A DNA stretch of 62,809 nucleotides, counting the filler. It is 3 parts of 3 records of this genome, joined end to end, with 100 filler letters (N's around TTAATTAATTAA, not from the genome) between each part and the next. Parts side by side here need not be neighbours in the genome. Positions count along the whole stretch, not along the records: positions 1 to 31,852 come from SRR20825019_1153; 2 more parts are not named here. The stretch is one strand, 5' to 3'. Made by a program: the position numbers and the translations under genes. Shown in pieces: positions 17,740 through 31,430 of the stretch. Numbering within the stretch: the stretch's first letter is position 1; every line of letters starts with the position of its first letter. Under the pieces are notes generated by a model. That model was given only the letters and a program-made list of their open reading frames with translations. It ran no database searches and was not told the DNA's origin.

Positions 17740-17756
17740 TGTCCGGCAGCTGGACA
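17740..17756. promoter_or_regulatory. Palindromic operator copy 1 (upstream of P450)
   Basis: TGTCC-GGCAGCT-GGACA. Confidence 0.65.
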
Positions 17757-17820
17757 CCCGCACTTCTGATCTTTCCAGATCACGTCTGATTTCAGCATCA
17801 TTTATCCAGGAGGAGCTGCC

Positions 17821-19011
17821 ATGCTGGATCAACACAAACACCCACGTGCGGAATACGATGTCGATCTCTATTCCGACGACGCGATCCTTGATCCTTATGA
17901 TCACTACCGGGAAATTCGCGACCGTGGGCCGGCGGTCTGGCTGCCGCGTCACGATCTTTGGGCCATCGGTCGGCATGCGGATGTGCGCGCGGCGCTGGCT
18001 GCGCATGACGTGCTGATTTCCGGCCGGGGCGTCGCCGCCAACGACGAGGTCAACAAGATTGCCAACAACAACATCCTTGCCACCGATGAACCGGCGCATG
18101 GCAAGTTGCGAAAGGTCATCGCGGCACCTGTAATGCCTCGTGGTCTGGCTGCGGTGAAAGAGCGTATCGTCGCAACAGCGCAGGAGATGATTGCTCGACT
18201 GGTCGAGCAGGGCACTTTTGACGGCATGCGCGATCTCGCCCAGACTTTGCCACTGACGGTCGTTTCTGAACTGCTTGGCCTGCCGGAGTCGGGAAGGCAG
18301 AATATGCTTCGTTGGGCCGCCGCCTCCTTCGATGCGCTTGGCGGAGCCAACGACAGACGCGACGCGGCCTTTCCGACGATCCTCGAACTGCGGGAGTTCT
18401 GCAACAACGGGGCCACGCGCGATGCAGTGAAGCCCGGCAGCTGGGTGGCCGGGCTTTATGATGCTGCGGATGCCGGTCTGATCGACCCGGACCTCGTGCC
18501 GCAGTTCACCCGTGATTACATCGCTCCCAGCCTCGACACGACGATCTTTGCCACTGGCCATCTGATGTACCACCTGGGACAGAACCCGGATCAGTGGGAC
18601 ACGTTGCGCGAAAATCCCCGCCTGATCGGCAATGCAATCAACGAGGCGATCCGGATTGAGGCGCCGATCCGAGGCTTCACCCGCTACGCGGCCACGGACT
18701 ATGACGTCGACGGGACCACCATCCCAAAAGGCGACCGGGTGATTGTTCTCTTTGCCTCCGCCAACCGGGACGAACGGCATTGGGACCAACCCGACCGGTT
18801 CGACGTGCACCGCGTCGTGACCGATCATGTCGGCTTCGGCCATGGTGTGCATCAGTGTATGGGCATGCAGCTTGCCCGTCTCGAAATGCGGTCCATCCTG
18901 GAGGCAATGATAGAGCGTGTCGCGCGGATCGAAATCGGCGCGCCGGTGTTCGAGATCAATAACGTCCTGCGCGGTTACCGGCAGTTGCCGATGACGTTTC
19001 ATGCGGCGTGA
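17821..19011 (+). CDS. Cytochrome P450 (bacterial class I)
   Basis: AGGAGG RBS; TDEPAHGKLR, I-helix APSLDTT, EAIR (ExxR), FGHGVHQCMG heme Cys. Confidence 0.96.
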   Translation: MLDQHKHPRAEYDVDLYSDDAILDPYDHYREIRDRGPAVWLPRHDLWAIGRHADVRAALAAHDVLISGRGVAANDEVNKIANNNILATDEPAHGKLRKVIAAPVMPRGLAAVKERIVATAQEMIARLVEQGTFDGMRDLAQTLPLTVVSELLGLPESGRQNMLRWAAASFDALGGANDRRDAAFPTILELREFCNNGATRDAVKPGSWVAGLYDAADAGLIDPDLVPQFTRDYIAPSLDTTIFATGHLMYHLGQNPDQWDTLRENPRLIGNAINEAIRIEAPIRGFTRYAATDYDVDGTTIPKGDRVIVLFASANRDERHWDQPDRFDVHRVVTDHVGFGHGVHQCMGMQLARLEMRSILEAMIERVARIEIGAPVFEINNVLRGYRQLPMTFHAA

Positions 19012-19111
19012 TGCCATCGCGATTGCGCCATTCGATGACCGCTGACGCTGGAAGGCCGTGCCCGTGCTGACGTTCTTTCACTCTCAGGGCGGTCTCTTGG
19101 ATGGCATCCTC

Positions 19112-19128
19112 TGTCCGTCCAGTGAACA
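19112..19128. promoter_or_regulatory. Palindromic operator copy 2 (upstream of FAD monooxygenase)
   Basis: TGTCC-GTCCAGT-GAACA. Confidence 0.6.
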
Positions 19129-19213
19129 GCTTTTGACCGTCCGTGGACCGACGCCTCGGGAAAGGCTGAAAAGACCCGCGTCGCGTTCCACGAACAATAC
19201 GAAAGGTTAAGAG

Positions 19214-20806
19214 ATGTCACATTTCCCGAGCGAGGTTCCGGTGGTGATCGTCGGCGCCGGTCCGACCGGACTGACGGCTGCGAACCTGCTGGCGTCCTAT
19301 GGCGTCGATTGCCTGCTTTTGGAACGCGATGCCGGGCCGATGAACCTGCCGCGGGCCATCGTGATCGACGACGAAGGCGCACGCACCTTGCAGGTGTTCG
19401 GCCTTGATCGCAGCTATCTCTCCGATCCGATGGAGGGGAACGGATCACGCTATTACGATGATGCTGGCCAGTGCTTTGCCGAGACGGGGCAGGGGCCGCG
19501 CAACTTTGGCTTTGCCAAGCGGAACTTTATCTTCCAACCCGAGCTTGAGGCGGCGTTGCGCGCGCGGCTGAATGAACTGGCACCAGCCACGCTTTGCTTT
19601 GATGCAGAAGTGACCGCGATTGAACAGGCTGAAGGGCACGCGACAGTGGCCGTGGCCGGGTCCGACGGTCAGGTCCACCACATTCGCACCCAGTGGGTTC
19701 TGGCCTGCGACGGCGGACGCAGCCCGATCCGCGAAACCCTTGGCATCCCGATGTCGGGGAACACATATGAAGAAGACTGGATCGTTGTCGATACGGTGAA
19801 CGATCCCGACGACACGCTGTTTTCCAAGTTCTTCTGCAGCGATGTGCGCCCCACGGTCAGCGTACCCGCACCGAATGGCGGCAGGCGCTACGAATTCATG
19901 CTCTTGCCGGGTGAAACACGTGAACTGGTGCTGGCAGATGATTTTCTGGAAACCCTGATGGCGCCGCTGCGTCCGTGGCGTCCGGCGGACATACTGCGGC
20001 GTACGGTCTATACCTTTCATGCCCGCATGGCCGAGCGGTTTCGGGACGGGCGTATCCTGCTGTTGGGGGACGCCGCGCATCTGACGCCACCCTTTGCCGG
20101 GCAGGGGATGAACGCCGGGCTGCGCGATGCACACAACGTGGCGTGGAAGCTGGCCTGCATGGTCCGGGGGTGCGCCGGTGATGTGCTGGACAGCTATTCG
20201 GACGAGCGTCGCAAGCCCGCTTGGGACATGATCCAGCTGGCGGTCGCCATGGGCAGCATCGTGATGCCTGCGGGGCGTGACCAAGTTACGTTTCGCGATC
20301 TGCTGCTGAAGGCACTGGAGCCTTTCCCGAACGTCCGCGACTACCTGATCCACATGCGGTTCAAACCCAAGCCACGCTATGAAACGGGGCTGTTTCTGGG
20401 ATTGGAAGCGCCGGAGTTCGATGCCTCGCTGGTGGGCGAGATGATCCCGCAACCTTTGCTCACCGCTGGAGGGCGGCTGGACGACAGGCTTGGGCCCGGC
20501 TTTGCGCTCATCGCGCAGGACGCAGCGGGTGCGGCGGCGCTTGAGATCATTAAAGGCGACAGTTTTATGGGCCTGCCGCTGGCAAAGGTGCAACTCGATA
20601 CAGGTAGCGCTGGTGTCGGTCTGAAGCTGGCCGATCCGGCTATCGCCCGGCCGTTGCGCACGCATCGCGACCAGGTGTTGCTGGTGCGACCCGACCGCTA
20701 TTGCGCCGCAGCCTCTGCCCCGTGCGCTGTCGACAAGATGCTTGCAGATTACGCGGCGCAATTTGCTGGCGCGCAGCGGGTGGACACGGATCGCGTGCCT
20801 GTCTGA
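19214..20806 (+). CDS. FAD-dependent aromatic hydroxylase, MhpA-like
   Basis: GAGPTG, PRAIVID, ACDGGRS, GDAAHLTPPFAGQGMNAG, C-terminal LVRPDRY. Confidence 0.92.
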   Translation: MSHFPSEVPVVIVGAGPTGLTAANLLASYGVDCLLLERDAGPMNLPRAIVIDDEGARTLQVFGLDRSYLSDPMEGNGSRYYDDAGQCFAETGQGPRNFGFAKRNFIFQPELEAALRARLNELAPATLCFDAEVTAIEQAEGHATVAVAGSDGQVHHIRTQWVLACDGGRSPIRETLGIPMSGNTYEEDWIVVDTVNDPDDTLFSKFFCSDVRPTVSVPAPNGGRRYEFMLLPGETRELVLADDFLETLMAPLRPWRPADILRRTVYTFHARMAERFRDGRILLLGDAAHLTPPFAGQGMNAGLRDAHNVAWKLACMVRGCAGDVLDSYSDERRKPAWDMIQLAVAMGSIVMPAGRDQVTFRDLLLKALEPFPNVRDYLIHMRFKPKPRYETGLFLGLEAPEFDASLVGEMIPQPLLTAGGRLDDRLGPGFALIAQDAAGAAALEIIKGDSFMGLPLAKVQLDTGSAGVGLKLADPAIARPLRTHRDQVLLVRPDRYCAAASAPCAVDKMLADYAAQFAGAQRVDTDRVPV

Positions 20807-20883: not shown

Positions 20884-21414
20884 ATGACTTGGGTTTGGAA
20901 ACGGTCATTGGGGCTGGCGCGTGCGCTGGCTCTGGTGGGCTTCACCGGTCTGCTGATACTGGCCCTGATGACCTCGCTCGACGTTTTGCTGCGCTGGCTG
21001 TTCAAGGCCCCGTTGCAGGGGGTGAACGACGTCAGCTCTGTCGTGATGGCGGTGGTGATCGCCGCCTGCATCCCCGCCAACCTCGCGATGAAACAGAACA
21101 TCCGGGTCGAGGTGTTCGGCGCAATTGGCGGGCGCATGGTGCACAAGATCCTGGAAGTCCTGTCGAGCAGCCTGACGCTGGTCTTCATCCTGATGATCGC
21201 CTGGCAATTTGTTCCCTTTGCCGCCTCGCTCAAGGCGGGGGGAGACAGGACATGGGTGCTGGGCTGGCCGGTCTGGCCGTGGTGGAGCGTGGCCTCCGTG
21301 ATGATGTGGCTGGCCGCTTTTGTGCAGGCAATGGTTCTTGTCATCGACCTCATCGCTCTTTTTCACCGGACCGACGATCCGCTGCCGCATGACGATACGG
21401 CGTCCGCAGCGTGA
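20884..21414 (+). CDS. TRAP small permease (DctQ family)
   Basis: Four TM segments, DVLLRWLF..PLQG, NIRVE; precedes the large permease. Confidence 0.88.
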   Translation: MTWVWKRSLGLARALALVGFTGLLILALMTSLDVLLRWLFKAPLQGVNDVSSVVMAVVIAACIPANLAMKQNIRVEVFGAIGGRMVHKILEVLSSSLTLVFILMIAWQFVPFAASLKAGGDRTWVLGWPVWPWWSVASVMMWLAAFVQAMVLVIDLIALFHRTDDPLPHDDTASAA

Positions 21415-21441: not shown

Positions 21442-22743
21442 ATGGACCCTCTGATTCTCGCCCTGCTGGGCTTTTGCGCCATGATGCTGCTGATCGCACT
21501 GCATGTGCCGATCGGCATCTCGATGGCGCTTGTCGGTGTTGTCGGCTTTGCGCAGGTCGTAGGCTGGGGGCCGGCGCTGTCGCTCATGGCCAGCGAACCG
21601 GCCTCGGCGATGAGCTCGCTCGACCTTGCGGTCATTCCCCTCTTCATGCTGATGGGCAGCCTTGCCGCCGCCGGAGGGCTGGCGACGGATGTTTACGATA
21701 TGGCGGGGGCGCTGTTCGGGCACCGGCGGGGCGGGCTGGCAACGACAACAATTGTCGCAAGCGCAGGTTTCGGGGCGATCTGCGGATCGGGTGTTGCGAC
21801 GACAGCCACTTTCGGTCGGGTCGCAATGCCCGAGATGTTGTCGCGCAACTATCGGCCCAGCCTTGCCTCGGGCGCCATCGCGGCGGGCGGAACACTTGGC
21901 ATTATCGTGCCGCCTTCGGCCATGATGATCCTCTACGCGGTTTTGACAGAACAATCGGTGCTGGAGCTGTTCAGCGCCGCGATCATTCCCGCCATGCTGG
22001 CCGTGGTGTTCTACGCGGTCGCCGTACAGGTCACGGTCTGGCGCGATCCGGACGCCGCCCCGAAATCAGAAAAGCTGCCGCTGCGCGAAAGGCTTGCGGC
22101 CATTGGTCGGGCATGGGGTGTGATCCTGCTGGCTGTGGTGGTCTTGGGCGGGATCTATTCGGGCATCTTCACTGTCAACGAGGCGGCGGCCATTGGTGTG
22201 GTCATCGCCTTCTTCTTCGCGCTGATGCGCAAGCGGCTCGACCGGGCGACGTTCCTGAGGGTGATGGCCGAGGCCAGTGGATCGACGGCGATGATCTACC
22301 TGATGGTCTTCGGCGCGACGATCTTTTCCTACTTCGTCTCGGTCACCGGCGGCGCACAGTTCATCGTCTCGTCCATCTCGGAAAGCTCCATCTCTCCGAT
22401 CGCCGTGATCTTCTGCATCCTGCTGCTCTACATCTTCCTTGGCGCGTTCTTCGACGAGGTCGCGGCGATGGTCATCACGCTGCCTTTCGTGATCCCGGTG
22501 ATCCAGGGCTTCGGCTATGATCTGGTGTGGTGGGGGATCATCAACGTCGTGGTGATCGGCATCGGCATGATCACACCGCCGATCGGGATCAACGTGATGC
22601 TGCTGAATTCGATGTATCGCGACATCCGCATTACCACGATCTACCGCGGTATCGTGCCCTTCCTGGTGGCGGACCTCGTGCGGCTGATCGTGCTGGTTCT
22701 GTTTCCCCCGCTCACGCTCTGGCTGCCTTCTGTCATTGGATGA
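21442..22743 (+). CDS. TRAP large permease (DctM family)
   Basis: IPLFMLMG, GTLGIIVPPS, ITPPIGINV. Confidence 0.94.
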   Translation: MDPLILALLGFCAMMLLIALHVPIGISMALVGVVGFAQVVGWGPALSLMASEPASAMSSLDLAVIPLFMLMGSLAAAGGLATDVYDMAGALFGHRRGGLATTTIVASAGFGAICGSGVATTATFGRVAMPEMLSRNYRPSLASGAIAAGGTLGIIVPPSAMMILYAVLTEQSVLELFSAAIIPAMLAVVFYAVAVQVTVWRDPDAAPKSEKLPLRERLAAIGRAWGVILLAVVVLGGIYSGIFTVNEAAAIGVVIAFFFALMRKRLDRATFLRVMAEASGSTAMIYLMVFGATIFSYFVSVTGGAQFIVSSISESSISPIAVIFCILLLYIFLGAFFDEVAAMVITLPFVIPVIQGFGYDLVWWGIINVVVIGIGMITPPIGINVMLLNSMYRDIRITTIYRGIVPFLVADLVRLIVLVLFPPLTLWLPSVIG

Positions 22744-22748: not shown

Positions 22749-22765
22749 TGTCCAACAGCTGGACA
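22749..22765. promoter_or_regulatory. Palindromic operator copy 3 (upstream of DctP)
   Basis: cTGTCC-AACAGCT-GGACAg. Confidence 0.65.
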
Positions 22766-22837: not shown

Positions 22838-23845
22838 ATGAAACTCATTAACATCGCCTTGGCGGCCGCGATTGCGGTCGGGCTGGCGGTCCCGGCCCGT
22901 GCCGAAGTGCTACGGTTCTCGAGCTTCGAGCCACCGGTGGCGCATATCACCAAGAACATCCTTACGGCCTGGGCCGCGGATGTCTCCGCTGCCTCCGAAG
23001 GGGAGTTGGATGTCCAGATGTTCCCCGGCGGGACATTGGGGCGGAACCCGGCGCAGCAGCTCAAGCTGGTCGAGGATGGGGTGGCGGATATCGCCTGGGT
23101 AATTCCCGGCTATACGCCCGGTCGCTTTAACGAGGGAACGGTGGCCGAGCTGCCATTCCTTGTGAAGGATTCAACAACCGGATCGACTGCAATGTGGGCG
23201 CTGTACGAGGCCGGGCTGCTCAAGGGGGATTACGAAAACTTCAAGCTGATCGGGGTCATGTCATCGTCGCCGAACGGGCTGGCGAGCACCGTGGACATGC
23301 GCGAACCGGCGGAACTGAAAGGCCAGAACATCCGCGCACCGGGTCCAACCATGCTGTCCGCCATCAAGTCGCTCGACGCGGTGCCGGTCGGGGGCATTAC
23401 GGGTCCGACCATGGCCGAAAGCCTCAGTCGCGGGTTGATTACCGGAACCTTCACACAGTGGGGGGCGGTAGAGACCTTCAGCGCTGGCGGGGTCGTGAAC
23501 CACTTTCTCGAATTGCCTCTCGGAGCGACGCCGATGCTGATCATCATGAACAAGGCCAAATACGAGGGCCTGTCGGACAAGGCGAAGGCGGCTATTGATG
23601 CACAGTCCGGCGCGGCGTTTTCGGACCGCTTCGGTCGATCCTTCGATGAATACCTCTCCGAGGCGAAAGACCGCATCCTGGCCGCGAACGAGATTACGGT
23701 CATTGATCCGGATGAGGCGTTGACCGCGAAATGGCAGGAGGCGATGTCGGTCGCGACACAGGACTGGATCGCGCAGACCGAGAACGGCCAGGCCATCTAT
23801 GACGCCTTCAAGGCCGAGCTTGAGAAGGCCGAAGCTTCGAACTGA
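22838..23845 (+). CDS. TRAP solute-binding protein (DctP family)
   Basis: Start MKLINIAL after GGGAGG; signal peptide; FPGGTLG, GVADI, YTPGRF, ELPF, LKGQNIR. Confidence 0.92.
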   Translation: MKLINIALAAAIAVGLAVPARAEVLRFSSFEPPVAHITKNILTAWAADVSAASEGELDVQMFPGGTLGRNPAQQLKLVEDGVADIAWVIPGYTPGRFNEGTVAELPFLVKDSTTGSTAMWALYEAGLLKGDYENFKLIGVMSSSPNGLASTVDMREPAELKGQNIRAPGPTMLSAIKSLDAVPVGGITGPTMAESLSRGLITGTFTQWGAVETFSAGGVVNHFLELPLGATPMLIIMNKAKYEGLSDKAKAAIDAQSGAAFSDRFGRSFDEYLSEAKDRILAANEITVIDPDEALTAKWQEAMSVATQDWIAQTENGQAIYDAFKAELEKAEASN

Positions 23846-23850: not shown

Positions 23851-23890
23851 GTGCGCGACGCGGGGACTTCCCGCGCGTCGCGCACTTTCT
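23851..23890 (+). terminator. Rho-independent terminator-like hairpin after dctP
   Basis: GTGCGCGACGCG…CGCGTCGCGCAC 12-bp stem followed by TTTCT. Confidence 0.7.
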
Positions 23891-23990: not shown

Positions 23991-24797
23991 CTAGAGCGCT
24001 TCTTTCTCGGCCAGCTCGCGGGAAATGCGCCGGGTCGTTTCCAGAAGCCTGTCCCGATAAAGTCTGATTGCATCATCAAAGGTCAGCGCACTGCCGGTCC
24101 AGATGATTGTCAGGCAGGCGACCACCTGGTCCCCGCTGAATATGGGGGCAGAGATGCTTTTGGTCGCTGACCGAAATCCCTCTTTGCGAAATCCGACGCC
24201 CAACTGGCGTGCCTGCGACAGGATATAGTCCAGCGAACCGTCTTGCAGGATGATCGGCCGCCTGAGGCCAAGCTGTGCCTCCAGTCCGGCCAGAGTGCGT
24301 TCGCGTTCCGCCTCGGGCGAAAACGCCAGATAGGCCCGTCCGCCCGAAGTTTCGAGCACAGGAAGCTTCAGGCCGACCATGCCATGATCGATGGAATAGG
24401 GGCTGATGTTGTGCGTCGACTCGCGGATCTCCATCTGGTGATCGTTGAAGGTGACCAGATCAAGCGGCCAGAGGATCTCCCTTCCCAGCCGGACCATCTC
24501 GGGCACCACGCTTTGCGCGACCCAGTCCTTGTCACGGAAACCCGAGCTGAGCGACTTGGCCTTCAGCGTCGGTCGCCATTTTTCTGACGAATGATCGCGG
24601 CTCACAAAACCCAGCCCTTCCAGCGTTTCCAGCAGGCGGTAGACCGTCGGTCGGGGAATACCGGTTTCGGCGGCCACCTCAGCGGCTTTGAGGCCATCAC
24701 GCTGGTTCACGGCCTGCAGCACCTGAAGGCCCCGTTCGAGCGCTCTGACAGATCCAAACCCTGAAATGGCGGTGCCTCCCTCTGGCTGGTCGCCCAC
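23991..24797 (-). CDS. IclR-family regulator (MhpR-like)
   Basis: SVRALERGLQVL, PRPTVYRLLETL HTH, TSGGRAYLAF, ISAPI; start uncertain (GTG 24797 chosen). Confidence 0.9.
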   Translation of the reverse strand: MGDQPEGGTAISGFGSVRALERGLQVLQAVNQRDGLKAAEVAAETGIPRPTVYRLLETLEGLGFVSRDHSSEKWRPTLKAKSLSSGFRDKDWVAQSVVPEMVRLGREILWPLDLVTFNDHQMEIRESTHNISPYSIDHGMVGLKLPVLETSGGRAYLAFSPEAERERTLAGLEAQLGLRRPIILQDGSLDYILSQARQLGVGFRKEGFRSATKSISAPIFSGDQVVACLTIIWTGSALTFDDAIRLYRDRLLETTRRISRELAEKEAL

Positions 24798-24844: not shown

Positions 24845-24861
24845 TGTCCGCCAAGCGGACA
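24845..24861. promoter_or_regulatory. Palindromic operator copy 4 (IclR/FAH divergent region)
   Basis: attGTCCGC-CAA-GCGGACaat, an extended perfect palindrome containing TGTCC-N7-GGACA. Confidence 0.7.
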
Positions 24862-24935: not shown

Positions 24936-25787
24936 ATGCGCATAGCCTCATATATCACGTCCGACGGTACCGCATCGTTCGGCGTTGCGGAGAACGGACA
25001 GCTGAAGGACGTGGGCGCGGCGTTCCGGCAAAAATATTCTGACCTGCGCGCGGTTCTCGCCGCCGGCGCGCTGGGCGACCTTGCCGCTGCCGCAGGGCAA
25101 GGCGGCGCGCTGGCCGAGGGCGATGTCACGCTGATCTCGCCGGTGCCGAACCCGGACAAGATCATCTGCATCGGCCTGAACTACATGACCCATATCAACG
25201 AGACCGGGCGCGACAAACCCGCGAAGCCGTCGATTTTCACGCGCTATCCGTCCTCTGTCACCGGGCACGGCCAGCCGATGATCCGGCCCAAGGCCTCGGA
25301 TTGGTTCGATTTCGAGGGCGAGTTGGCGGTGATCATTGGCACAGCCGGACGTGACATCGCCGAAGCGGACGCCATGCAGCACGTCGCGGGTTACAGCTGT
25401 TTCAACGACGGGTCGATCCGCGACTACCAGCGCCACACCTCGCAATTCTGGGCCGGCAAGAACTTTGTCGACAGCGGCGCCATGGGCCCCTGGCTGGTCA
25501 CGACGGATGAGTTGACGGACCCGGCGGCGCAGACCATGGAGACGCGGCTGAATGGCGAGGTCATGCAATCGACGCCGATCAGCGACCTGGCCTTCAACAT
25601 TCCCGAATTGATCGCCTACCTGTCCATCGTGACCGAACTGCTGCCCGGCGACGTGATCGCCACCGGCACCCCAAGCGGTGTGGGCCTGTTCCGCGAGCCC
25701 AAGCTGTTCATGAAGGACGGTGATAACGTCGAGGTCGAGATTTCGGGGATCGGCACCCTGTCGAACCCGATCCGCGATCAGGTCTGA
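24936..25787 (+). CDS. Fumarylacetoacetate hydrolase (FAH) family protein
   Basis: KIICIGLNY, DFEGELAVIIG, FNDGSIRD, GKNF, PGDVIATGTPSGVG. Confidence 0.94.
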   Translation: MRIASYITSDGTASFGVAENGQLKDVGAAFRQKYSDLRAVLAAGALGDLAAAAGQGGALAEGDVTLISPVPNPDKIICIGLNYMTHINETGRDKPAKPSIFTRYPSSVTGHGQPMIRPKASDWFDFEGELAVIIGTAGRDIAEADAMQHVAGYSCFNDGSIRDYQRHTSQFWAGKNFVDSGAMGPWLVTTDELTDPAAQTMETRLNGEVMQSTPISDLAFNIPELIAYLSIVTELLPGDVIATGTPSGVGLFREPKLFMKDGDNVEVEISGIGTLSNPIRDQV

Positions 25788-25822: not shown

Positions 25823-26146
25823 ATGATCAAAGTGACGTTCATCGAACATGACGGAACCAAGACGACAGTCGAAGGCCGCAGCGGCGACAGTGTGATGAGC
25901 CTTGCCGCTGCGCAGGGCATCGACGGCATCGTCGCCGAATGCGGCGGCGGGATGATGTGCGCAACCTGTCATTGCTATGTCGATGATGCATGGTTCGCCA
26001 GGACCGGGCCACGGTCGGACGACGAGGCTGACATGCTGGACTGTGCGGTTGCCGAGGTCCGTCAGACTTCGCGCCTGTCCTGCCAGATCACGCTGAGCGA
26101 CGAGCTTGACGGTCTTGTCGTCTACCTTCCAGAGGCTCAGGTGTGA
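25823..26146 (+). CDS. [2Fe-2S] ferredoxin, putidaredoxin-type
   Basis: ECGGGMMCATCH…SRLSCQI. Confidence 0.95.
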   Translation: MIKVTFIEHDGTKTTVEGRSGDSVMSLAAAQGIDGIVAECGGGMMCATCHCYVDDAWFARTGPRSDDEADMLDCAVAEVRQTSRLSCQITLSDELDGLVVYLPEAQV

Positions 26147-27339
26147 ACGACGGGCATGTGGTCATCGTCGGCGCGGGGCAGGGCGGCGTTCAGGCGGCGC
26201 TTTCGCTGCGGCAGGAAGGGCATGGCGGAGCGATCACGCTGATCGGGGACGAAGAGGGCCTGCCCTATCAGCGGCCGCCCCTGTCAAAGGACTATCTCAA
26301 GACCGGACAGGCCGAGAGGCTGGTGCTGCGTCCTGCAGATTATTTTGACCGCAAGGCGATCAACCTGTGGACCGGCAGGCGCGTCGATGGCATCGACCGG
26401 GCGGCCAGGCAGGTCCATGTCGGGCAGGACACTCTGACCTACGACAGGCTCATTCTCGCGACTGGAACGCGCAACCTGACCCCGCCGATATCGGGCATCG
26501 GGCGGGCTTTCGGTCTGCGAACCCTTGCGCAGGCGAAAGGTCTGCGCGACGCCCTGAACGGAACACGCCGCATTGCCGTGATCGGTGGCGGGTTCATCGG
26601 GCTGGAAGTTGCCGCTGTGGCGCGGGCTGGCGGGCATGAGGTGCATGTCGCCGAGGCAGCGCCGCGCCTGATGTCTCGGGTTCTGTCGCCCCAGATGTCC
26701 GAGAGGTTTCGGGGCAAGCACGAATCGCTCGGCACCCGGTTCCATCTTGGCAACGGCGTGACCGAACTGCGCGACGGCTGCATTGTTTTGGCCAGTGGTG
26801 AAACGATAGACGCGGACCTTGTGCTGTTGGCCGCCGGTGTGCGTCCGAACACCGAACTGGCCGAGGCCGCAGGGCTTGCCGTCGACAACGGCGTGGTGGT
26901 CGATCCTCTCCTTCGGACCTCCGATCCGGAGATCTACGCGCTTGGCGATTGCTGCGCCTTTCCCGACCCCGAGTCCGGCAACCACGTGCGCCTTGAAAGC
27001 GTGCAGGCGGCGACGGATCAGGCCCGCGCCATTGCCCGGACCATCGTCCACGGTGCGCAGGAGCCTTACGCCAAGGTGCCGTGGTTCTGGTCCGATCAGG
27101 CGGACTGGAAGTTGCAGATCGCGGGGCTGGCCGATCCCGACGCCACCAGTGTCACCATTGGCGAGGACACGGTTTTCAGGTTCTCCGGCAACAGGTTGTG
27201 CGCGGTTGAGACAATCAACAATGCCAAGGTCCACATGCAGGCGCGCAAGGTTCTGGCCCGGCGGCCTGCTCCGGCTTACGATGATCTTGCGCGGTGCGGC
27301 TTTGACCTCGGACGCGAAACAGAGAAGGACAGAGTTTGA
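26143..27339 (+). CDS. FAD/NAD(P)H ferredoxin reductase
   Basis: GAGQGG, PYQRPPLSK, GGGFIGLE, RLESVQAA, PWFWSDQ. Confidence 0.95.
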   Translation: MNDGHVVIVGAGQGGVQAALSLRQEGHGGAITLIGDEEGLPYQRPPLSKDYLKTGQAERLVLRPADYFDRKAINLWTGRRVDGIDRAARQVHVGQDTLTYDRLILATGTRNLTPPISGIGRAFGLRTLAQAKGLRDALNGTRRIAVIGGGFIGLEVAAVARAGGHEVHVAEAAPRLMSRVLSPQMSERFRGKHESLGTRFHLGNGVTELRDGCIVLASGETIDADLVLLAAGVRPNTELAEAAGLAVDNGVVVDPLLRTSDPEIYALGDCCAFPDPESGNHVRLESVQAATDQARAIARTIVHGAQEPYAKVPWFWSDQADWKLQIAGLADPDATSVTIGEDTVFRFSGNRLCAVETINNAKVHMQARKVLARRPAPAYDDLARCGFDLGRETEKDRV

Positions 27340-28205
27340 TGAAACGGATGCTCACCTGTGCCGTGCTGGGCAACTTTACCAGCCGCGCCATGAACCCCAA
27401 CCTGCCGATTACCCCGGCCGAGATTGCAGATGACTGCCTTGCCGCTGCCGAAGAGGGTGCGGCGATTGTCCATGTGCATGTCCGCGACCCAAAGACGGAA
27501 CTTCCCTCGATGGAGGTCGCGCATTACGCCGAGGTCGTCTCGCGCATCCGTGACGTCAACGCGGACCTGATCATAAATCTGACGACCGGCAACGGCGGAC
27601 GGTTCGATCCGACGGACGGCGATCCGGTGAAACCCGGGCCAAAGACCAACCTTCTGCCTCCCGACGCACGGGTGCGGCATATCCAGGAGATCAAACCGGA
27701 CATCGCGACGCTCGACCTGAATACGATGGTGTTCGGCGGTGAGGTCGTCATCAACGCGCCCGCCTCCATCCGGCGGATGGGTGAATTGATCATGTCAGCG
27801 GGCGTAAAGCCCGAGATCGAGCTGTTCGATTCCGGTGATATCGCCCTTCTCAAAGCCCTGCAAAAGGAAGGTCACCTTCCCGCCGCGCCGCTTTGTTCGA
27901 TCGTCATGGGCGTTCAATTCGGCTTTGCGCCGTCGCCTGAAACCGTTCTCTATGCCCGCGGACTGCTGCCGCCCGGTGCGCATTGGACGGCCTTTGGCAC
28001 CGGACGCTTCGCTTTTCCGATGGTGGCCCAGTCGCTGCTGGCGGGTGGCCACGTGCGCATCGGATTGGAGGACGCGACAAAGCTGGACGCAGATACGCTT
28101 GCGCCGTCGAATGCGGCAATGGTCGCAAAAGCACGGCGCATGATGGAGGATTTGGGCCATCCCCCCATGTCTCCGTCCGAGGCGCGGAGAATGCTGGCTC
28201 TTTGA
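27339..28205 (+). CDS. Beta-keto acid cleavage enzyme (BKACE/DUF849)
   Basis: NPNLPITPAEIA, GAAIVHVHVRD (HxH), KPEIELFD, GHVRIGLED. Confidence 0.9.
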   Translation: MKRMLTCAVLGNFTSRAMNPNLPITPAEIADDCLAAAEEGAAIVHVHVRDPKTELPSMEVAHYAEVVSRIRDVNADLIINLTTGNGGRFDPTDGDPVKPGPKTNLLPPDARVRHIQEIKPDIATLDLNTMVFGGEVVINAPASIRRMGELIMSAGVKPEIELFDSGDIALLKALQKEGHLPAAPLCSIVMGVQFGFAPSPETVLYARGLLPPGAHWTAFGTGRFAFPMVAQSLLAGGHVRIGLEDATKLDADTLAPSNAAMVAKARRMMEDLGHPPMSPSEARRMLAL

Positions 28206-28534: not shown

Positions 28535-29155
28535 TCAGATGAGGCCTTCCAACTGCATAGCCCTTTGCGCCGCCGGTCGCGCGGACATACGTTCGAAATA
28601 CCGGATCAGGTTCGCGGGCAAGTCCAGCTTCAACCGCGCGACGCCCCAGAACATCGTATAGAACAACGCGGCATCCGCGATGGTCATGCGTTCGCCCATG
28701 ATAAAGGGATTGTCGCCAAGCTGCGTCGACAGGAAACCCGCCGCTTTCATCACGATGTCCTTGCCATAGTTCTGCACCCACACAAGGTCGCCATCGTTCG
28801 GCGTGAACTTCTGTGGCCGCAGAATCCGCGTGAAGCCCTGCATGTGCATCGTGGCCACGATGTAATCGAGGGTCTCCTTAATGCGCAGTTCCTGTTCAAA
28901 GCTGTCCGGTTCGAATTGCTCCCTGGCGTGGGTCTGGGCCAACCAGTGGGCGATGACACCGAACTCGGTCAGCAAAGAGCCGTCGTCGCGCAGGATCGCA
29001 GGGACCTTGGATTTGGGATTTATCTTGATGTAGCCGTCCTTGAGCTGGTCGCCGTTCTGGATGTGGATGGCGCCGCCTTCATAGGCGATGCCGATTTCCT
29101 CAAGCAGAAAGTGAATGCCGAGCGAGCACGCTCCGGGGGAATAATAGAACTTCAT
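28535..29155 (-). CDS. Beta-class glutathione S-transferase (BphK-like)
   Basis: MKFYYSPGACSL, INPKSKVPAI, MTIADA. Confidence 0.9.
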   Translation of the reverse strand: MKFYYSPGACSLGIHFLLEEIGIAYEGGAIHIQNGDQLKDGYIKINPKSKVPAILRDDGSLLTEFGVIAHWLAQTHAREQFEPDSFEQELRIKETLDYIVATMHMQGFTRILRPQKFTPNDGDLVWVQNYGKDIVMKAAGFLSTQLGDNPFIMGERMTIADAALFYTMFWGVARLKLDLPANLIRYFERMSARPAAQRAMQLEGLI

Positions 29156-29176
29156 GGGGTGGCTCCCTTGTTCGCG

Positions 29177-30172
29177 TCAGTCGTGTTCGACCTTGAGCAT
29201 GATTTTCCCGATATGTGCGTTCTCTTCCATCGCGGCATGCGCCTTGGCTGCGTCCCGCAGATCGAACGTGGCAGCAATCGTCGGTCGCACCTTGCTGCCC
29301 AGCAAGGGCAGGACATCCCGCCGAAGGTCCTCGGCGACCGCGGCCTTGCGGTCGAGCGGAAGCGGACGCAGCAGCGACCCGGTAATACATAGCCGTTTGG
29401 CCATGATATCACGCAGCGGGATCGCCAGATCTGCACCGCCCCCACCGGACAGGTGCGCAATCTGGCCGTCGGGGGCCATCATCTGGATATCCTGTTTCAG
29501 ATGCGACCCGGCGGAGACGTCGAGCAGGGATGAAATCCCCTGTCCCCCGGTCGCCTCCATCACCTTGGCGGCGAGATCTTCGTCGCGGTACGAAAATGCG
29601 TCATGAGCCCCAAAGGCCTTTGCCGCGGCGACCTTGGTTTCGGTCCCAGCGGTTGCGATGACGCGATAGCCAAGGGCCGACATCGCCTGCAGCGCGATGT
29701 GGCCGACGCCGCTGGTCCCGCCGTGGATCAGGGCAAAGCTGTCTTTCCTGCATGTCATGAGGTGGAAGAAATTCCACCATGTCGTGAACGCAGCCTCGGG
29801 AAAACCTGCCGCTTCGATATCCGAGAGCGTATCTGGCGCGGGCAGGACCAGTTGCTGGTTGGCCACCACATACTGACCATAGCCGCCTCCCTGAACCAGT
29901 GCCATGACACGCTCTCCGATCCGGCCCTGATCGACGCCGGCTCCGACCGCGACGATCGTACCGCAGACTTCAAGCCCCGGCACCGCGGTGCCGTCGCTGT
30001 GCCGGCCCCCCACCCGCTGGTGGACGTCATGCCGGTTGATGCCCGCAGCGCTCACCCGGATCAGCATCTGGCCGCAACCCGGCTGTGGAACCTCGACCGT
30101 TTTCGGTTCCAAGACGTCGGGGCCTCCAGCCTTGGTAATGACAATCGCGGTTTGGGTTTCAGGTATGGGCAT
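29177..30172 (-). CDS. NAD(P)H:quinone oxidoreductase (PIG3-like MDR)
   Basis: GGPDVL, AGINRHD, PGLEVCG, HGGTSGVG, HIGKIML; start MPIPETQ. Confidence 0.9.
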   Translation of the reverse strand: MPIPETQTAIVITKAGGPDVLEPKTVEVPQPGCGQMLIRVSAAGINRHDVHQRVGGRHSDGTAVPGLEVCGTIVAVGAGVDQGRIGERVMALVQGGGYGQYVVANQQLVLPAPDTLSDIEAAGFPEAAFTTWWNFFHLMTCRKDSFALIHGGTSGVGHIALQAMSALGYRVIATAGTETKVAAAKAFGAHDAFSYRDEDLAAKVMEATGGQGISSLLDVSAGSHLKQDIQMMAPDGQIAHLSGGGGADLAIPLRDIMAKRLCITGSLLRPLPLDRKAAVAEDLRRDVLPLLGSKVRPTIAATFDLRDAAKAHAAMEENAHIGKIMLKVEHD

Positions 30173-30284
30173 CGCCTTGGAGGTCCTCGTGTTGATCATG
30201 CAAAGACGGTCGCATCGGACCGTGAAACGGCGCGCGCGAGGGCGTCGCGCAGGTCACCAAATGTGCCTGCTCAGCGCGCCGCGA

Positions 30285-31265
30285 TCATTCGCTGTGAATG
30301 ACGCGATCCAGCCAGGCGCAATTCGGTTGGGGATTGGGTGCGCGGAAGCCAGTGCGGGCAGTCTCGTGGCGCATTTCCCGCATCCTTTTGCGCACCGCGT
30401 CATCCTCTGGAAGATACAGGCGTTCATGCCCCCAGGTTGACGGGCCTTCGGTTGTCTCGAACGGTTGCCAGGTGTCCGGATCGACGATCTGCGCGCCCCA
30501 TCCGTATTCAACGAAAAACTTCGAAGGGGTATTGGTGTAAAAGCTCATCATGTGATCGTTCGAGTGCCGCCCCAGTGAATAGGCGACCCCTTCGTCGCGC
30601 TCCTGTGCGATGTCATACCCCTGTCCGACATCGTCCAAGGACAGCAGTTCGACCATGAAGTGATGGATGCCCTTGCGGCCCGATCCCACCATGGCAAAGC
30701 TGTGGTGCCGCCCGTTCACGTGGAAGAAGTAGAGAGGGTAGGGTGTCAGCCCATAATCGGTGACCTTAAAGCCCAGAATGTCCCGGTAGAAATGCAGGAT
30801 GCCTTGAACGTTTTCAACATGCAGGACCGCGTGGCCCATGCCCAGCGAACCTGTCTTGAAACCGGAAATCGGTCGCCCGGACAGGAACGGGTCGCTGGCG
30901 ATTTCAGGCCCGCTGAAGGCTTCGAGCCGGTTGCCGTCCGGATCACAGAAAGAGATCAGCCGGGCGACATGGCGCTGATCGGCGAGAGACGCGCCATGCC
31001 AGGTGACATTGACACCGTGGTTCTCCAATCGCGACGCCAAGGCATCGAGATCGTCGGGCGTGTCCACTTCCCATCCCATAAAGGCCAGGTCCTCTTCGCC
31101 CTCGCCTGTGACAATCAGCCGTTGCTTTCGGTCGTCCATGCGGAACAGTCCGGAGTTTCCACCTGTGTCGACCTTCTGCATTCCCAGCATATTGGTGGCG
31201 AAATCGTCCCAATCGTTCAGTTTTTTTGAGCTGATTCCGATATAGCCGAGCGATGTGATTGACAT
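30285..31265 (-). CDS. Type I extradiol ring-cleavage dioxygenase (BphC-like, VOC fold)
   Basis: MSITSLGYIG after GAGAGGAG; GMGHAVL, RHHS, HHFMVE, LGRHSND, SFY.TPS.F.VEYG. Confidence 0.93.
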   Translation of the reverse strand: MSITSLGYIGISSKKLNDWDDFATNMLGMQKVDTGGNSGLFRMDDRKQRLIVTGEGEEDLAFMGWEVDTPDDLDALASRLENHGVNVTWHGASLADQRHVARLISFCDPDGNRLEAFSGPEIASDPFLSGRPISGFKTGSLGMGHAVLHVENVQGILHFYRDILGFKVTDYGLTPYPLYFFHVNGRHHSFAMVGSGRKGIHHFMVELLSLDDVGQGYDIAQERDEGVAYSLGRHSNDHMMSFYTNTPSKFFVEYGWGAQIVDPDTWQPFETTEGPSTWGHERLYLPEDDAVRKRMREMRHETARTGFRAPNPQPNCAWLDRVIHSE

Positions 31266-31413
31266 GGGTGTGCTCCTCTCAAGCTGGTGTGTCGGCCCCG
31301 ATCTGCTGCTTCGCTTTGCCAACCTGACCAAGGCGGCCCACGCAGGTAACCGCTACACAGTTGCCCGAATATCTAACGTCGCTCGCCGCTCCGCGCTTTT
31401 GCAAACTCATTCC

Positions 31414-31430
31414 TGTTCACCTGTCGAACA
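31414..31430. promoter_or_regulatory. Palindromic operator copy 5 (upstream of dioxygenase)
   Basis: ccTGTTC-ACCTGTC-GAACAgg. Confidence 0.6.

Follow-up and report, generated by a model that had tools for sequence, protein, structure and literature searches.

Gene content and extent of the cluster

We have analysed a stretch of DNA of 62,809 nucleotides from a marine bacterium (the window), which carries a gene cluster whose bounds in a first-pass annotation, 17740 and 31430, coincide with the outer edges of the first and last copies of a 17-bp palindrome. All 13 genes named in that annotation were confirmed at their places by Pfam and NCBIfam profile searches. The genes, the operator copies and a hairpin are given below in their order along the window.

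17740-17756, no strand: operator copy 1, TGTCCGGCAGCTGGACA, 81 bp upstream of the P450 start
17821-19011, plus strand: CYP199-related cytochrome P450, 396 aa (Pfam p450)
19112-19128, no strand: operator copy 2, TGTCCGTCCAGTGAACA, 102 bp upstream of the hydroxylase
19214-20806, plus strand: MhpA-like class A FAD aromatic hydroxylase, 530 aa (FAD_binding_3, E 5e-65)
20884-21414, plus strand: DctQ, TRAP membrane subunit (Pfam DctQ)
21442-22743, plus strand: DctM, TRAP membrane subunit (Pfam DctM; TIGR00786 294, above the cut-off of 268)
22749-22765, no strand: operator copy 3, TGTCCAACAGCTGGACA, within the dctM-dctP gap
22838-23845, plus strand: DctP, TRAP solute-binding protein, 335 aa (Pfam DctP)
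23852-23886, plus strand: GC-rich perfect hairpin directly 3' of the dctP stop, read from the sequence
23991-24797, minus strand: IclR-family regulator, MhpR-like (HTH_IclR and IclR_C)
24845-24861, no strand: operator copy 4, TGTCCGCCAAGCGGACA, between the divergently oriented iclR and FAH genes, 91 bp from the FAH start
24936-25787, plus strand: FAH-family protein, 283 aa (FAA_hydrolase, E 3e-66)
25823-26146, plus strand: 2Fe-2S ferredoxin (Fer2)
26143-27339, plus strand: FAD ferredoxin reductase (Pyr_redox_2 with Reductase_C)
27336-28205, plus strand: DUF849/BKACE enzyme of the BsfD type, 289 aa (PF05853, 292 bits)
28535-29155, minus strand: glutathione S-transferase (GST), GstA-like (GST_N and GST_C)
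29177-30199, minus strand: PIG3-family NAD(P)H quinone oxidoreductase, MDR (TIGR02824 327.9, above the cut-off of 296.8)
30285-31265, minus strand: BphC-like two-domain type I extradiol dioxygenase, 326 aa (Glyoxalase and BphC_D1)
31414-31430, no strand: operator copy 5, TGTTCACCTGTCGAACA, 149 bp upstream of the dioxygenase

The start of DctP was corrected by alignment with the copy in genome G004, and the dioxygenase start at 31265 is also a corrected one. For the IclR regulator, the longest ORF begins at 24884, orthologues align from residue 36-40 on, and a GTG start at 24797 is probable. The hairpin at 23852-23886 is a probable operon end, which is missing from the list of a terminator scan because it has no T-run. 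The FAH, ferredoxin, reductase and BKACE genes form one close-packed unit. The intergenic gaps of the cluster leave no room for a further gene, and the interval 17.3-31.6 kb contains no gene for an alpha/beta-hydrolase, an aldolase or an acylating dehydrogenase.

Operator copies and the putative regulator

The palindrome TGTYC-N7-GRACA has six copies in the window where 100 shuffles predict 0.14, none of these shuffles attaining six, and all six copies lie inside the cluster. Five of them precede the P450, hydroxylase, dctP, FAH and dioxygenase genes, here and in relatives, which bears out the proposal of the first-pass annotation that a shared operator ties the genes together. The remaining copy, at position 23019, is internal to dctP and may be a chance occurrence. 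Genome-wide, in the nearest genome compared (G001), the palindrome is not enriched (17 copies versus 14 for the reversed control), and six of these 17 copies fall within the 13.7-kb cluster.

The distances from operator to start codon are fixed across 13 related loci, and copies are also found on a Pannonibacter plasmid. Copy 1 keeps equal spacing to the P450 in L015, L016, L026, L027 and L053. Among the 13 roseobacter-group loci, the operator lies 101-105 bp upstream of the hydroxylase in eight, 73-92 bp upstream of FAH in all 13 and 86-149 bp upstream of the dioxygenase in 12; the copy in the dctM-dctP gap is at the matching position in 11, and in L028 and L053 as well. The accessory genes (P450, BKACE, ferredoxin and reductase) stand under the same operator as the core. 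This conservation shows that the sites are real, and the putative ligand is the IclR protein, which is predicted to bind them, with either regulatory sign, ahead of five transcription units. Its score with NF007339 (232) is below the cut-off of 299. In two RNA runs, the only matches to the cluster were chance matches of 18 letters.

Conserved core and accessory genes

We compared 38 loci fetched with DctP, among them 14 orthologous loci. The MhpA-like hydroxylase, the TRAP importer DctQMP, the IclR regulator, the BphC-like dioxygenase and FAH occur together in 14/38 loci and are the conserved core. FAH is found in every one of the orthologous loci, and the PIG3-type reductase in 12 of the 14, usually in the order dioxygenase-reductase-FAH. 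In the relatives, the gene set is kept at about 70% identity but its order is rearranged, and it is found again on the Pannonibacter plasmid at 49-71% protein identity. On the other hand, the P450 occurs in only 6/14, BKACE in 7/14 and the ferredoxin with its reductase in 2/14, the latter pair lying near the cluster also in Pannonibacter. These genes, which the first-pass annotation had counted in the system, are optional accessories and not core. In a wider sample of 301 genomes, one per genus of the family, the dioxygenase was found in 16; among these, one has the P450 (E<=1e-100) and three have BKACE (E<=1e-80).

Proposed route and alternative readings

We consider it about an even chance (roughly 0.5) that the cluster forms a single regulon under IclR control, through which a para-oxygenated aromatic carboxylic acid is degraded aerobically by the steps set out below. 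The substrate is probably a phenylpropanoid or aryl-alkanoate of plant or algal type. In the first step, a TarP-like TRAP transporter would import the acid, as the fold and family of DctP suggest. The predicted DctP model (pLDDT 91.8) gave as best Foldseek matches marine aromatic-acid binding proteins and TarP_Sse in complex with coumarate or cinnamate (TM 0.86-0.92), and the ligands of these matches are coumarate, cinnamate, ferulate, caffeate or 4-hydroxyphenylacetate. Arg166 is invariant in the 17 sequences aligned. The model thus groups DctP with the TarP-like aromatic-acid binders, in line with the earlier suggestion that TRAP imports an aromatic acid.

In the second step, the P450, served by a ferredoxin and reductase of its own, which are class I P450 redox partners, would strip a para O-methyl group. 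Among solved structures, CYP199A4 and CYP199A2 are closest to this P450 (E 2e-73 to 4e-74), and it retains the heme-Cys motif as well as the Asp/Thr pair. The CYP199 family comprises para-selective O-demethylases of aromatic acids, which demethylate 4-methoxybenzoate and 4-methoxycinnamate. Accordingly, the unmasking by O-demethylation proposed in the first-pass annotation gains support, and the P450 is a probable para-O-demethylase feeding the pathway. The carboxylate triad of CYP199A4, R92/S95/S244, reads I/N/D here, and Asp244 is present in all six cluster-linked orthologues of L015-L027 as well as in L053. Without these carboxylate binders, the substrate may not be anchored as benzoate is, or may not carry an acid at that end. 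In 7/13 sister loci, an arylsulfatase (E 2e-267 to SpAS2, 4UPL) lies at the place equivalent to that of the P450, and a truncated copy of it lies within a P450-bearing locus. This placement suggests that methyl-ether and sulfate-ester unmasking are interchangeable, and in the sister clusters the SpAS2-type enzyme would unmask a sulfate ester. Para-sulfated phenolic acids are found in marine macrophytes.

In the third step, the hydroxylase would form a triol of the hydroxyquinol type, perhaps by way of a quinone, which the PIG3-type reductase would reduce back, by analogy with HcdA and DntB/DntC. The GST is suggested to protect against quinones or other electrophiles, a safeguard drawn from the same analogy. 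The BphC-like dioxygenase would then open the ring beside the vicinal diol. In the alignment with 1HAN (E 8e-64), its catalytic residues are intact (His146, His195, His210, His241, Asp244, Tyr250 and Glu260). The product would be a 2,4-dihydroxy-6-oxo-dienoate, which corresponds to a 2,4,6-trioxo acid, and we propose that FAH hydrolyses it as a C-C hydrolase, for which HcdC and DntG are precedents.

The claim that the gene set is not a described pathway was too strong, considering that the core resembles two described routes, with the P450 and BKACE as add-ons. The hcdABC genes of Pseudomonas mandelii (FAD hydroxylase, type I extradiol dioxygenase and FAH-family hydrolase) have the composition of the core, and the lower 2,4-dinitrotoluene (dnt) route, with monooxygenase, quinone reductase, extradiol (trihydroxytoluene) oxygenase and isomerase/hydrolase, is alike including its quinone reductase; the likeness to HcdA/B/C and DntB/D/G is one of family and composition only. 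The dnt lower route yields pyruvate. HcdC, a 31.2-kDa FAH-family protein working after HcdA and HcdB, left the 2,3-dihydroxyphenylpropionate cleavage product undecolorised, and its own products were drawn as hypothetical by the authors.

Unlike the mhp and bph routes, which have an alpha/beta-hydrolase, hydratase and aldolase, the cluster has FAH proposed in their stead. As the first-pass annotation had remarked, the canonical MhpC/MhpDEF lower pathway is absent from the cluster, and the MhpF-type dehydrogenase domain PF09290 was found in 0/3 related genomes (99-100% complete). This bears on an Mhp/Hpp-like route, in which the hydroxylase would form a 3-substituted catechol (e.g. 2,3-dihydroxyphenylpropionate or -cinnamate), the dioxygenase would cleave it and FAH would replace MhpC. 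The hydroxylase and the regulator are nearest to MhpA- and MhpR-named models, respectively, and the dioxygenase is of the BphC/HsaC-like type preferring 3-substituted catechols. The hydroxylase exceeds the cut-off of the NCBIfam subfamily NF004829 (411 against 390) but is under every MhpA equivalog cut-off (best 527.7 against 546); being just under, it may possibly still carry out ordinary ortho-hydroxylation to a catechol. However, the plain catechol expected in the first-pass annotation fits poorly because HcdC, the one tested FAH enzyme at this position, is idle on the corresponding cleavage product, and an oxidation-prone triol is favoured because the quinone reductase, which such a route leaves without a role, is conserved. 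The 2-hydroxypentadienoate product would also need MhpD/E/F. We consider this route unlikely.

Also unlikely, in our view, is a homogentisate- or gentisate-like route, in which ipso attack para to the hydroxyl group would give a 2,5-dihydroxyaryl acid and then a maleyl-1,3-diketone, which GST would isomerise and FAH hydrolyse, the reductase recycling benzoquinone. GST, FAH and quinone reductase are co-located, HcdA belongs to an enzyme class capable of ipso hydroxylation with side-chain shift, and para-hydroxy acids are what the P450 or the sulfatase would form directly. However, the dioxygenase keeps all catechol-type BphC catalytic residues and is about as close to BphC as to any relative. 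The para-diol cleavers known to us belong to lineages other than the BphC-type dioxygenases. The GST scores below cut-off with GstA (111 against 198) and with maiA (47 against 171), and it is not a conserved orthologue: among the orthologous loci the window type is confined to L015 and L027, an unrelated GST type (36-47% identical) stands in others, and some show none.

FAH comes nearest to the NCBIfam models for a 2,4-diketo-acid hydrolase and for the C-terminal half of HpaG, both under cut-off. The second of these (171.5 bits, cut-off 276), with HpcE and related decarboxylases among the best solved relatives, would suit a homoprotocatechuate-like route, where FAH acts as an HpaG-type decarboxylase/isomerase following semialdehyde oxidation. 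This is highly improbable, considering that the cluster has no semialdehyde dehydrogenase, hydratase or aldolase and that the dioxygenase, with 54 bits where the cut-off is 321, falls outside the HpaD type.

As the last and least certain step of the preferred triol route, BKACE, where present, would take a beta-keto-acid fragment with acetyl-CoA. The generic BKACE reaction converts a beta-keto acid and acetyl-CoA to an acyl-CoA and acetoacetate. The closest structure is 9ZSC (BsfD, E 1e-94), and as in BsfD, the canonical Tyr is replaced by Phe (Phe166) and the Arg91 loop is kept; BsfD, the closest characterised relative, lacks the canonical cleavage. One Paracoccus BKACE has an aromatic-catabolism gene context, with its role unassigned. 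BKACE might instead work with the P450 on the side chain: the P450 would generate a beta-keto acid by oxidation at the benzylic or beta carbon, BKACE would cleave this acid with acetyl-CoA and so make the side chain shorter with no CoA ligase, and the core would take the ring afterwards. The close packing of FAH, redox partners and BKACE and the presence of BKACE in 5/6 P450-bearing loci of L015-L027 speak for this, as do plasmids of Sphingopyxis and Aminobacter on which P450 homologues (46-50% identical) adjoin a BKACE gene or have one at a distance of 6 kb. We hold it to be very unlikely, since the plasmid BKACEs are just 28-30% identical to that of the window, either gene occurs without the other (BKACE in L022 and L025, the P450 in L016 and Pannonibacter), and CYP199 enzymes work on the para substituent. 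Formaldehyde-handling genes adjoin the P450s on the Sphingopyxis and Aminobacter plasmids, which is consistent with demethylation.

Gene content and surroundings of the cluster

We identified 13 closely packed genes within 17.7-31.4 kb of the window by ORF calling and by Pfam and NCBIfam searches, and the gene set noted there in the first-pass annotation was confirmed for every member. Three start codons were reset, those of DctP and the IclR regulator by alignment to relatives and that of the dioxygenase from reading the sequence.

Genes of the cluster, with window position, strand, product and source of the call
17821-19011, +, P450 (ORF, Pfam/NCBIfam)
19214-20806, +, FAD hydroxylase (ORF, Pfam/NCBIfam)
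20884-21414, +, DctQ (ORF, Pfam)
21442-22743, +, DctM (ORF, Pfam/NCBIfam)
22838-23845, +, DctP (ORF, Pfam; start from alignment with relatives)
23991-24797, -, IclR regulator (ORF, Pfam/NCBIfam; start from alignment with relatives)
24936-25787, +, FAH-family protein (ORF, Pfam/NCBIfam)
25823-26146, +, 2Fe-2S ferredoxin (ORF, Pfam)
26143-27339, +, ferredoxin reductase (ORF, Pfam)
27336-28205, +, BKACE (ORF, Pfam)
28535-29155, -, GST (ORF, Pfam/NCBIfam)
29177-30199, -, PIG3-type quinone oxidoreductase (ORF, NCBIfam)
30285-31265, -, BphC-like extradiol dioxygenase (ORF, Pfam; start set by reading the sequence)

The closest named record is Sulfitobacter sp. 20_GPM-1509m, with 93-99% protein identity across all 13 genes. 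The right flank carries SURF1, M32 peptidase, threonine synthase, argF, argD and tRNA synthetase genes (Pfam), and these housekeeping genes indicate a chromosomal context for the cluster. Directly upstream of the cluster, a single-module NRPS of 1356 aa with condensation, adenylation, carrier and thioesterase domains is encoded at 13238-17308 on the minus strand, without an operator copy and without a link to the cluster in other loci. The left flank also holds an acyl-CoA ligase and an enoyl-CoA hydratase (2148-4461) and, farther on, an enoyl-CoA hydratase together with an MDR dehydrogenase and a GST (10368-12928); a GntR regulator and an ABC transporter separate the two groups. These genes could be a CoA-dependent side-chain pathway for an acid, possibly an aromatic one. 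A GFA-family gene (glutathione-dependent formaldehyde-activating enzyme; 44115-44471, plus strand) is located at a distance of 13 kb from the P450 and lacks an operator copy. Runs of 44 N occur four times, at 31853-31896, 31909-31952, 57322-57365 and 57378-57421, forming two pairs with 12 bases between members, the first pair about 400 bp past the last operator copy. The lowest GC of the window (0.52) was found at 54000-56400, where ORFs such as 55020-56375 (451 aa) have no Pfam match.

Putative operator and distribution among relatives

The 17-bp palindrome TGTYC-N7-GRACA, whose outermost copies mark the end coordinates 17740 and 31430 of the first-pass annotation, was found by reading intergenic DNA and by pattern searches; a generic repeat search did not return it and listed weak coding-region matches. 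It occurs six times in the window against 0.14 expected, a count reached in 0 of 100 shuffles, and all six copies fall inside the cluster. Five copies precede genes, at 81 bp for the P450, 91 bp for FAH (in the divergent iclR-FAH region), 102 bp for the hydroxylase and 149 bp for the dioxygenase; the fifth stands ahead of dctP, in the gap behind dctM. The copy within dctP may be due to chance. Genome-wide, the nearest related genome showed no overall enrichment (17 copies, 14 for the reversed control), and 6 of its 17 copies lie inside the 13.7-kb cluster.

Using DctP as the anchor, we collected 38 related loci and scored each with all 13 window proteins. The hydroxylase, DctQMP, IclR, the dioxygenase and FAH were found together in 14 of them (13 roseobacter-group loci and one of Nitratireductor) at 49-99% identity. 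In the roseobacter-group loci, the operator stands 73-92 bp upstream of FAH (13/13), 86-149 bp upstream of the dioxygenase (12/13), upstream of dctP (11/13) and 101-105 bp upstream of the hydroxylase (8/13). When a P450 is present, it has a copy exactly 81 bp upstream in four of six loci and lies directly behind FAH in the other two; on a Pannonibacter plasmid the distance to the P450 is likewise 81 bp. We consider this conserved placement to be a phylogenetic footprint of the putative regulator site. The proposal that a shared operator ties the cluster together was thus borne out by the count in the window and strengthened by the relatives.

The IclR regulator has both HTH and effector domains and scored 232 on NF007339, whose cut-off is 299. 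A promoter scan returned 4 promoter-like sites against 3.2 expected, none of which precedes a cluster gene in the correct orientation, and a terminator scan returned 5 terminator-like sites against 10.9 expected. Two RNA runs from one sample shared 11% of sampled words, but yielded only 18-letter matches of chance length in long unrelated contigs; one further contig matched beyond 31.6 kb. The sequencing runs X5 and X6 contain the whole stretch as a single contig and may represent its source DNA.

The quinone reductase was present in 12 of the 14 orthologous loci, BKACE in 7, the P450 in 6, and the ferredoxin and its reductase in 2. The usual gene order is hydroxylase-DctQMP-(SnoaL_4)-IclR (opposite strand)-dioxygenase-reductase-FAH; compared with this, the dioxygenase-reductase segment of the window is inverted, and the ferredoxin, its reductase and BKACE are inserted behind FAH. 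A relative at about 70% identity (G004) carries the same set minus the ferredoxin and its reductase in still another order. The Pannonibacter plasmid, which belongs to another bacterial order, carries the P450, ferredoxin, reductase, hydroxylase, IclR, DctQMP, dioxygenase and FAH at 49-71% identity. Co-occurrence in other genomes had been set as a check of the cluster: the core passes it, recurring together in 14 of the 38 loci. The P450, its redox partners and BKACE are often missing, and we regard these accessory genes as optional modules that come under the same regulon in the loci that carry them.

The GST type of the window was found in only two loci, and 7 of the 13 roseobacter-group loci have a different GST. 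A core role of the GST as a maleyl isomerase was dropped on the basis of NCBIfam scores and this distribution. A SnoaL_4 gene (NTF2-like, about 200 aa, no NCBIfam match) lies between dctP and iclR in 10 of the 13 sister loci (L016-L019 and L021-L026; e.g., L018:11064-11660) and is missing from the window, L015, L020 and L027. No further conserved members were found in the scanned flanks of five sister loci.

We also sampled the family with one genome per genus (n=301; E<=1e-100 for dioxygenase and P450, E<=1e-80 for BKACE). The dioxygenase occurred in 16 genomes, about 5% of genera, and BKACE in 9, three of which also had the dioxygenase. The P450 occurred in 8 genomes and was orthologous only in the nearest related one; in the other seven it was 43-46% identical and the dioxygenase was absent. 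The distant Burkholderiales MAG loci (L029-L037) have FAH, DctPQM and a hydroxylase of 32-35% identity to that of the window, and the two that were scanned (L031 and L036) each contain a small single-domain VOC protein. These loci are analogous to the cluster.

Ring-cleavage core and described pathways

The hydroxylase is a class A flavoprotein closest to MhpA-named models. It passes a subfamily cut-off only (411 against 390) and stays below the MhpA equivalog cut-offs of NCBIfam (score/cut-off 527.7/546, 353.7/966, 347.6/853 and 301.3/1135). The dioxygenase has two VOC domains. Aligned with 1HAN, it keeps His146, His210 and Glu260, which bind Fe(II), together with the catalytic His195 and Tyr250. 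Since the metal ligands and catalytic residues of BphC are intact, a vicinal diol is the likely substrate; a homogentisate-like route, which would go through a para-diol, has lower odds. The score on the equivalog TIGR03213 (290.7) does not reach the cut-off of 366.45, and therefore the enzyme is not filed as BphC itself. The quinone reductase passes the PIG3 model TIGR02824 (327.9 against 296.8), and its gene lies between those of the dioxygenase and FAH in most loci. The FAH protein matches PF01557 (FAA_hydrolase, 223.5 bits) and is closest to the 2,4-diketo-acid hydrolase and HpaG models of NCBIfam, both below cut-off. A decarboxylase role would agree with the second of these models and is given lower odds than hydrolysis. 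Among the best 120 of 7605 FAH relatives, HcdC was absent and the names were generic only.

The first-pass annotation had not recognised the gene set, with its lower route, as a described pathway. For the core this does not hold, because hcdABC and the lower dnt pathway share its composition. Passages of PMC6222606 and PMC7913881 describe hcdABC of Pseudomonas mandelii 7HK4 (with hcdR and hcdDEFG) as encoding a flavin hydroxylase, a type I extradiol dioxygenase and a 31.2-kDa FAH-family protein for the catabolism of 3-(2,4-dihydroxyphenyl)propionate and 7-hydroxycoumarin. According to the same passages, 3-(2,3,5-trihydroxyphenyl)propionate is the product of HcdA, and its cleavage by HcdB gives 2,4-dihydroxy-6-oxonona-2,4-dienedioate, which HcdC removes; HcdC is reported there as inactive on ordinary catechol cleavage products, including that of 2,3-dihydroxyphenylpropionate. 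They also give the substrate as a plant phenylpropanoid-type acid, with reductases co-induced and HcdE as an MDR ene-reductase acting on coumarins. As far as these passages allow a comparison by family and composition, the window resembles hcdABC in that hydroxylase, type I extradiol dioxygenase and FAH hydrolase are encoded together under a shared operator. On the other hand, it adds a TRAP importer, a CYP199-like P450 with redox partners, a PIG3 reductase, a GST and BKACE, and its host is a marine alphaproteobacterium. Accordingly, the Pseudomonas hydroxylase/extradiol dioxygenase/FAH module, which is from soil, has widespread marine counterparts (dioxygenase in 16/301 genera).

The lower 2,4-dinitrotoluene pathway of Burkholderia (DntB-DntC-DntD-DntG-DntE), in the part of PMC10602510 that treats it, starts with a flavin monooxygenase that gives a hydroxyquinone, which a quinone reductase converts to the triol. 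A trihydroxytoluene (extradiol) oxygenase then cleaves the ring, an isomerase/hydrolase yields pyruvate and a beta-oxo acid, and the CoA-dependent semialdehyde dehydrogenase DntE takes the fragment, with pyruvate and propionyl-CoA as the endpoint (PMC10602510). By family and composition, and to the extent of that account, the window is similar in having a quinone reductase alongside the monooxygenase and the extradiol dioxygenase. DntG belongs to the FAH family. The dnt substrate differs, being a xenobiotic non-acid, and a DntE counterpart is missing from the cluster, and BKACE is present in some loci; Pfam found no aldehyde dehydrogenase within 17.3-31.6 kb. The hcd and dnt routes both proceed via a 1,2,4-triol, whose cleavage product is a 1,3-diketone hydrolysable by FAH-type enzymes. 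The dnt logic, in which the quinone formed by the monooxygenase is reduced to the triol, explains a quinone reductase conserved beside the dioxygenase and FAH. More generally, a triol accounts for FAH conserved directly after the dioxygenase, for the quinone reductase between them in most loci and for the absence of MhpC and MhpDEF from the cluster.

The mhp (E. coli) and hpp (Rhodococcus) pathways for 3-hydroxyphenylpropionate rely on the hydroxylase MhpA and on the IclR regulator MhpR, whose site is a 17-bp palindrome, and the diol, which bears a side chain, is opened by extradiol cleavage. The window likewise has an MhpA-like hydroxylase, an MhpR-like IclR, a 17-bp palindrome and an extradiol dioxygenase, and in these respects a Mhp-like catechol route would fit. 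However, the cluster lacks an MhpC-type alpha/beta hydrolase and MhpD/E/F, and the MhpA and MhpR equivalog cut-offs are missed. The intergenic gaps of the cluster are too small for an alpha/beta-hydrolase, an aldolase or an acylating dehydrogenase, and none of 3 related genomes, each 99-100% complete, yielded an MhpF-type domain. The canonical lower route is thus missing from the cluster, as had been noted, and we give the catechol route lower odds than the triol route.

The interpretation of the cluster as an aromatic-catabolism system is partly supported: the cluster is an uncharacterised marine variant of the hydroxylase/extradiol dioxygenase/FAH pathway type, and the P450 and BKACE, which had been counted as parts of it, are optional modules. 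A full-text search limited to open-access papers gave no description of this gene set as a whole, and orcinol-pathway terms returned nothing relevant. Roseobacter-group bacteria process much of the aromatic carbon from marine plants and algae, and few peripheral pathways have been assigned; here a compact regulon offers a precise putative operator, one regulator and one importer.

A MhpA-like hydroxylase and a FAH (53% identical to that of the window) also occur on a Croceibacterium plasmid (L054), together with glycosidases, esterases, a VOC protein and a gene of the quercetin 2,3-dioxygenase family. The locus has the look of one for flavonoid glycosides and suggests that the hydroxylase-FAH pair serves polyhydroxylated rings more widely.

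Importer, P450 and BKACE in the proposed route

The best structural matches of the DctP model (pLDDT 91.8) are TarP proteins with coumarate, cinnamate, ferulate, caffeate or 4-hydroxyphenylacetate, together with marine binding proteins that are "specific for aromatic acid ligands" by their PDB titles. DctP resembles the TarPQM-type TRAP transporters for lignin-derived aromatic acids (7NR2, 7NRA, 7NSW, 7NQG and 5IGA, ligands taken from PDB titles) in fold (TM 0.86-0.92), in the conserved Arg and in standing in an aromatic-acid catabolic context, whereas identity is only 24-30%. With the DctP fold, the carboxylate-binding Arg and aromatic-acid-binding nearest relatives, DctP is predicted from the model to be a TarP-like aromatic-acid binder. 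A search of open-access literature on the codes 7NR2 and 7NRA found no paper.

The P450 (Pfam p450, E 1e-26) has CYP199A4 and CYP199A2 as its best solved relatives (E 2e-73 to 4e-74; 250 bits over 379 residues). Membership in CYP199 requires at least 40% identity to a named member. The motifs FGHGVHQCMG and LDTT align with the Cys-ligand and I-helix acid/alcohol (D251/T252) motifs of CYP199A4, and the aromatic cradle F182 and F298 as well as Arg243 are kept. In contrast, R92, S95 and S244 are replaced by Ile, Asn and Asp, and a three-residue deletion precedes position 92. In CYP199A4, Arg92, Ser95 and Ser244 bind the carboxylate, as stated in part of PMC11854964. CYP199A enzymes attack aromatic acids at the para substituent, which they oxidise, and they demethylate 4-methoxybenzoate; a relative also produced 4-hydroxycinnamate, and engineered S244D raises the activity of CYP199A4 on para-methoxy benzenes in general, according to passages of PMC10838780 and PMC11854964. 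Asp244, engineered in that enzyme, is natural in the window P450 and present in every cluster-linked orthologue. Considering that the CYP199A4 motifs are kept and the carboxylate binders replaced, the P450 probably acts on a para substituent and probably holds the far end of its substrate otherwise than a benzoate oxidase does. It would be a new CYP199 relative with a different substrate anchor.

A class I redox chain is encoded at 25823-27339 (Fer2 and Pyr_redox_2/Reductase_C) and belongs to the regulon of the P450 through the FAH operator. As had been noted, a complete three-component system of P450, ferredoxin and FAD reductase is thus split across the cluster, comparable to the class I systems CYP199A4/HaPux/HaPuR and CYP199A2/Pux/PuR (Rhodopseudomonas palustris). 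At 25984-26069 in the ferredoxin gene, second, lower-depth contigs of the sequencing runs X5 and X6 match the flanks and carry 81 different letters in place of 84; they probably stem from a second organism in these samples that has a related ferredoxin gene.

Just upstream of the hydroxylase, where the window has its P450, 7 of the 13 sister loci encode a sulfatase that looks cytoplasmic. It matches 4UPL (E 2e-267), which is the arylsulfatase SpAS2, with a kcat/Km of 2.1e5 on p-nitrophenyl sulfate. Sulfatase and P450 are both present in one locus, another P450-bearing locus has a sulfatase fragment only, and the distant Burkholderiales locus L031 has a VanA-type O-demethylase beside its FAH-TRAP-hydroxylase set. 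Since one or another of these enzymes is found beside the hydroxylase set, the variable upstream enzyme may unmask a para-oxygen, from a methyl ether in the window and from a sulfate ester in the relatives. The relatives may give a native setting for SpAS2-type arylsulfatases, which are structurally solved and functionally orphan.

BKACE is a DUF849 TIM barrel (PF05853, 292 bits) that reaches no NCBIfam BKACE equivalog cut-off. Its closest solved relative is BsfD (PDB 9ZSC, E 1e-94). At the column of the canonical catalytic Tyr (Tyr145 of the Cloacimonas enzyme) it has Phe, as do BsfD (Phe166) and 3C6C, and it retains the loop of about 20 residues with Arg91 of BsfD. In the part of the preprint 10.64898/2026.01.15.699783 that explains the significance of the Tyr position, BsfD is a DUF849 enzyme of flavophos biosynthesis that makes a 1,3-diketone and performs no canonical cleavage. 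It builds a 1,3-diketone phosphonate in a biosynthetic cluster, whereas the BKACE gene of the window lies in a catabolic regulon; its product may either cleave in the canonical way or, like BsfD, condense and decarboxylate. In part of PMC11961710, the generic BKACE reaction moves the acyl part of a beta-keto acid to CoA and releases acetoacetate, and what BKACEs do physiologically in aromatic catabolism is called unknown; the cluster points to a possible role of this kind.

Based on these assignments, the TRAP system would import an acid, which the P450 would para-O-demethylate. Hydroxylation would then give a triol, the reductase and perhaps the GST would protect against the quinone, and extradiol cleavage would follow. 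FAH would hydrolyse the product to pyruvate and a beta-keto acid, or to a dicarboxylate and acetylpyruvate as proposed for HcdC, and BKACE would move the acyl part of the beta-keto acid to CoA with release of acetoacetate. In its widest form, to which we give about one chance in four, this is a marine "masked phenol" regulon of interchangeable parts. Aryl-alkanoic acids of algae and seagrasses with a para-O-methyl or para-O-sulfate group would be unmasked by one of two enzymes, a CYP199-derived O-demethylase whose anchor pocket is rebuilt and has a natural Asp244, or a cytoplasmic arylsulfatase of the SpAS2 type; a common triol-type meta-cleavage core would degrade the product, and a BsfD-type DUF849 enzyme would capture the beta-keto-acid fragment of FAH. 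If true, a BKACE would gain its first physiological role in the aerobic catabolism of aromatics, and SpAS2-like sulfatases would gain their first native substrate context.

Of all steps in the model, that of BKACE is the least secure: not every core-bearing locus has the gene, the closest relative that has been characterised is non-canonical, and relatives of the P450 occur beside distant BKACEs on two plasmids. The last observation may reflect a separate P450-BKACE side-chain module. On these plasmids (L056, Sphingopyxis granuli pRW412a; L055, Aminobacter sp. MSH1 pUSP2), P450 relatives of 46-50% identity have distant BKACE genes (28-30% identical) and formaldehyde-detoxification genes as neighbours or at a distance of 6 kb, which points to a P450-BKACE association recurrent across orders. 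The Sphingopyxis plasmid also carries a FAD monooxygenase-VOC-FAH operon.
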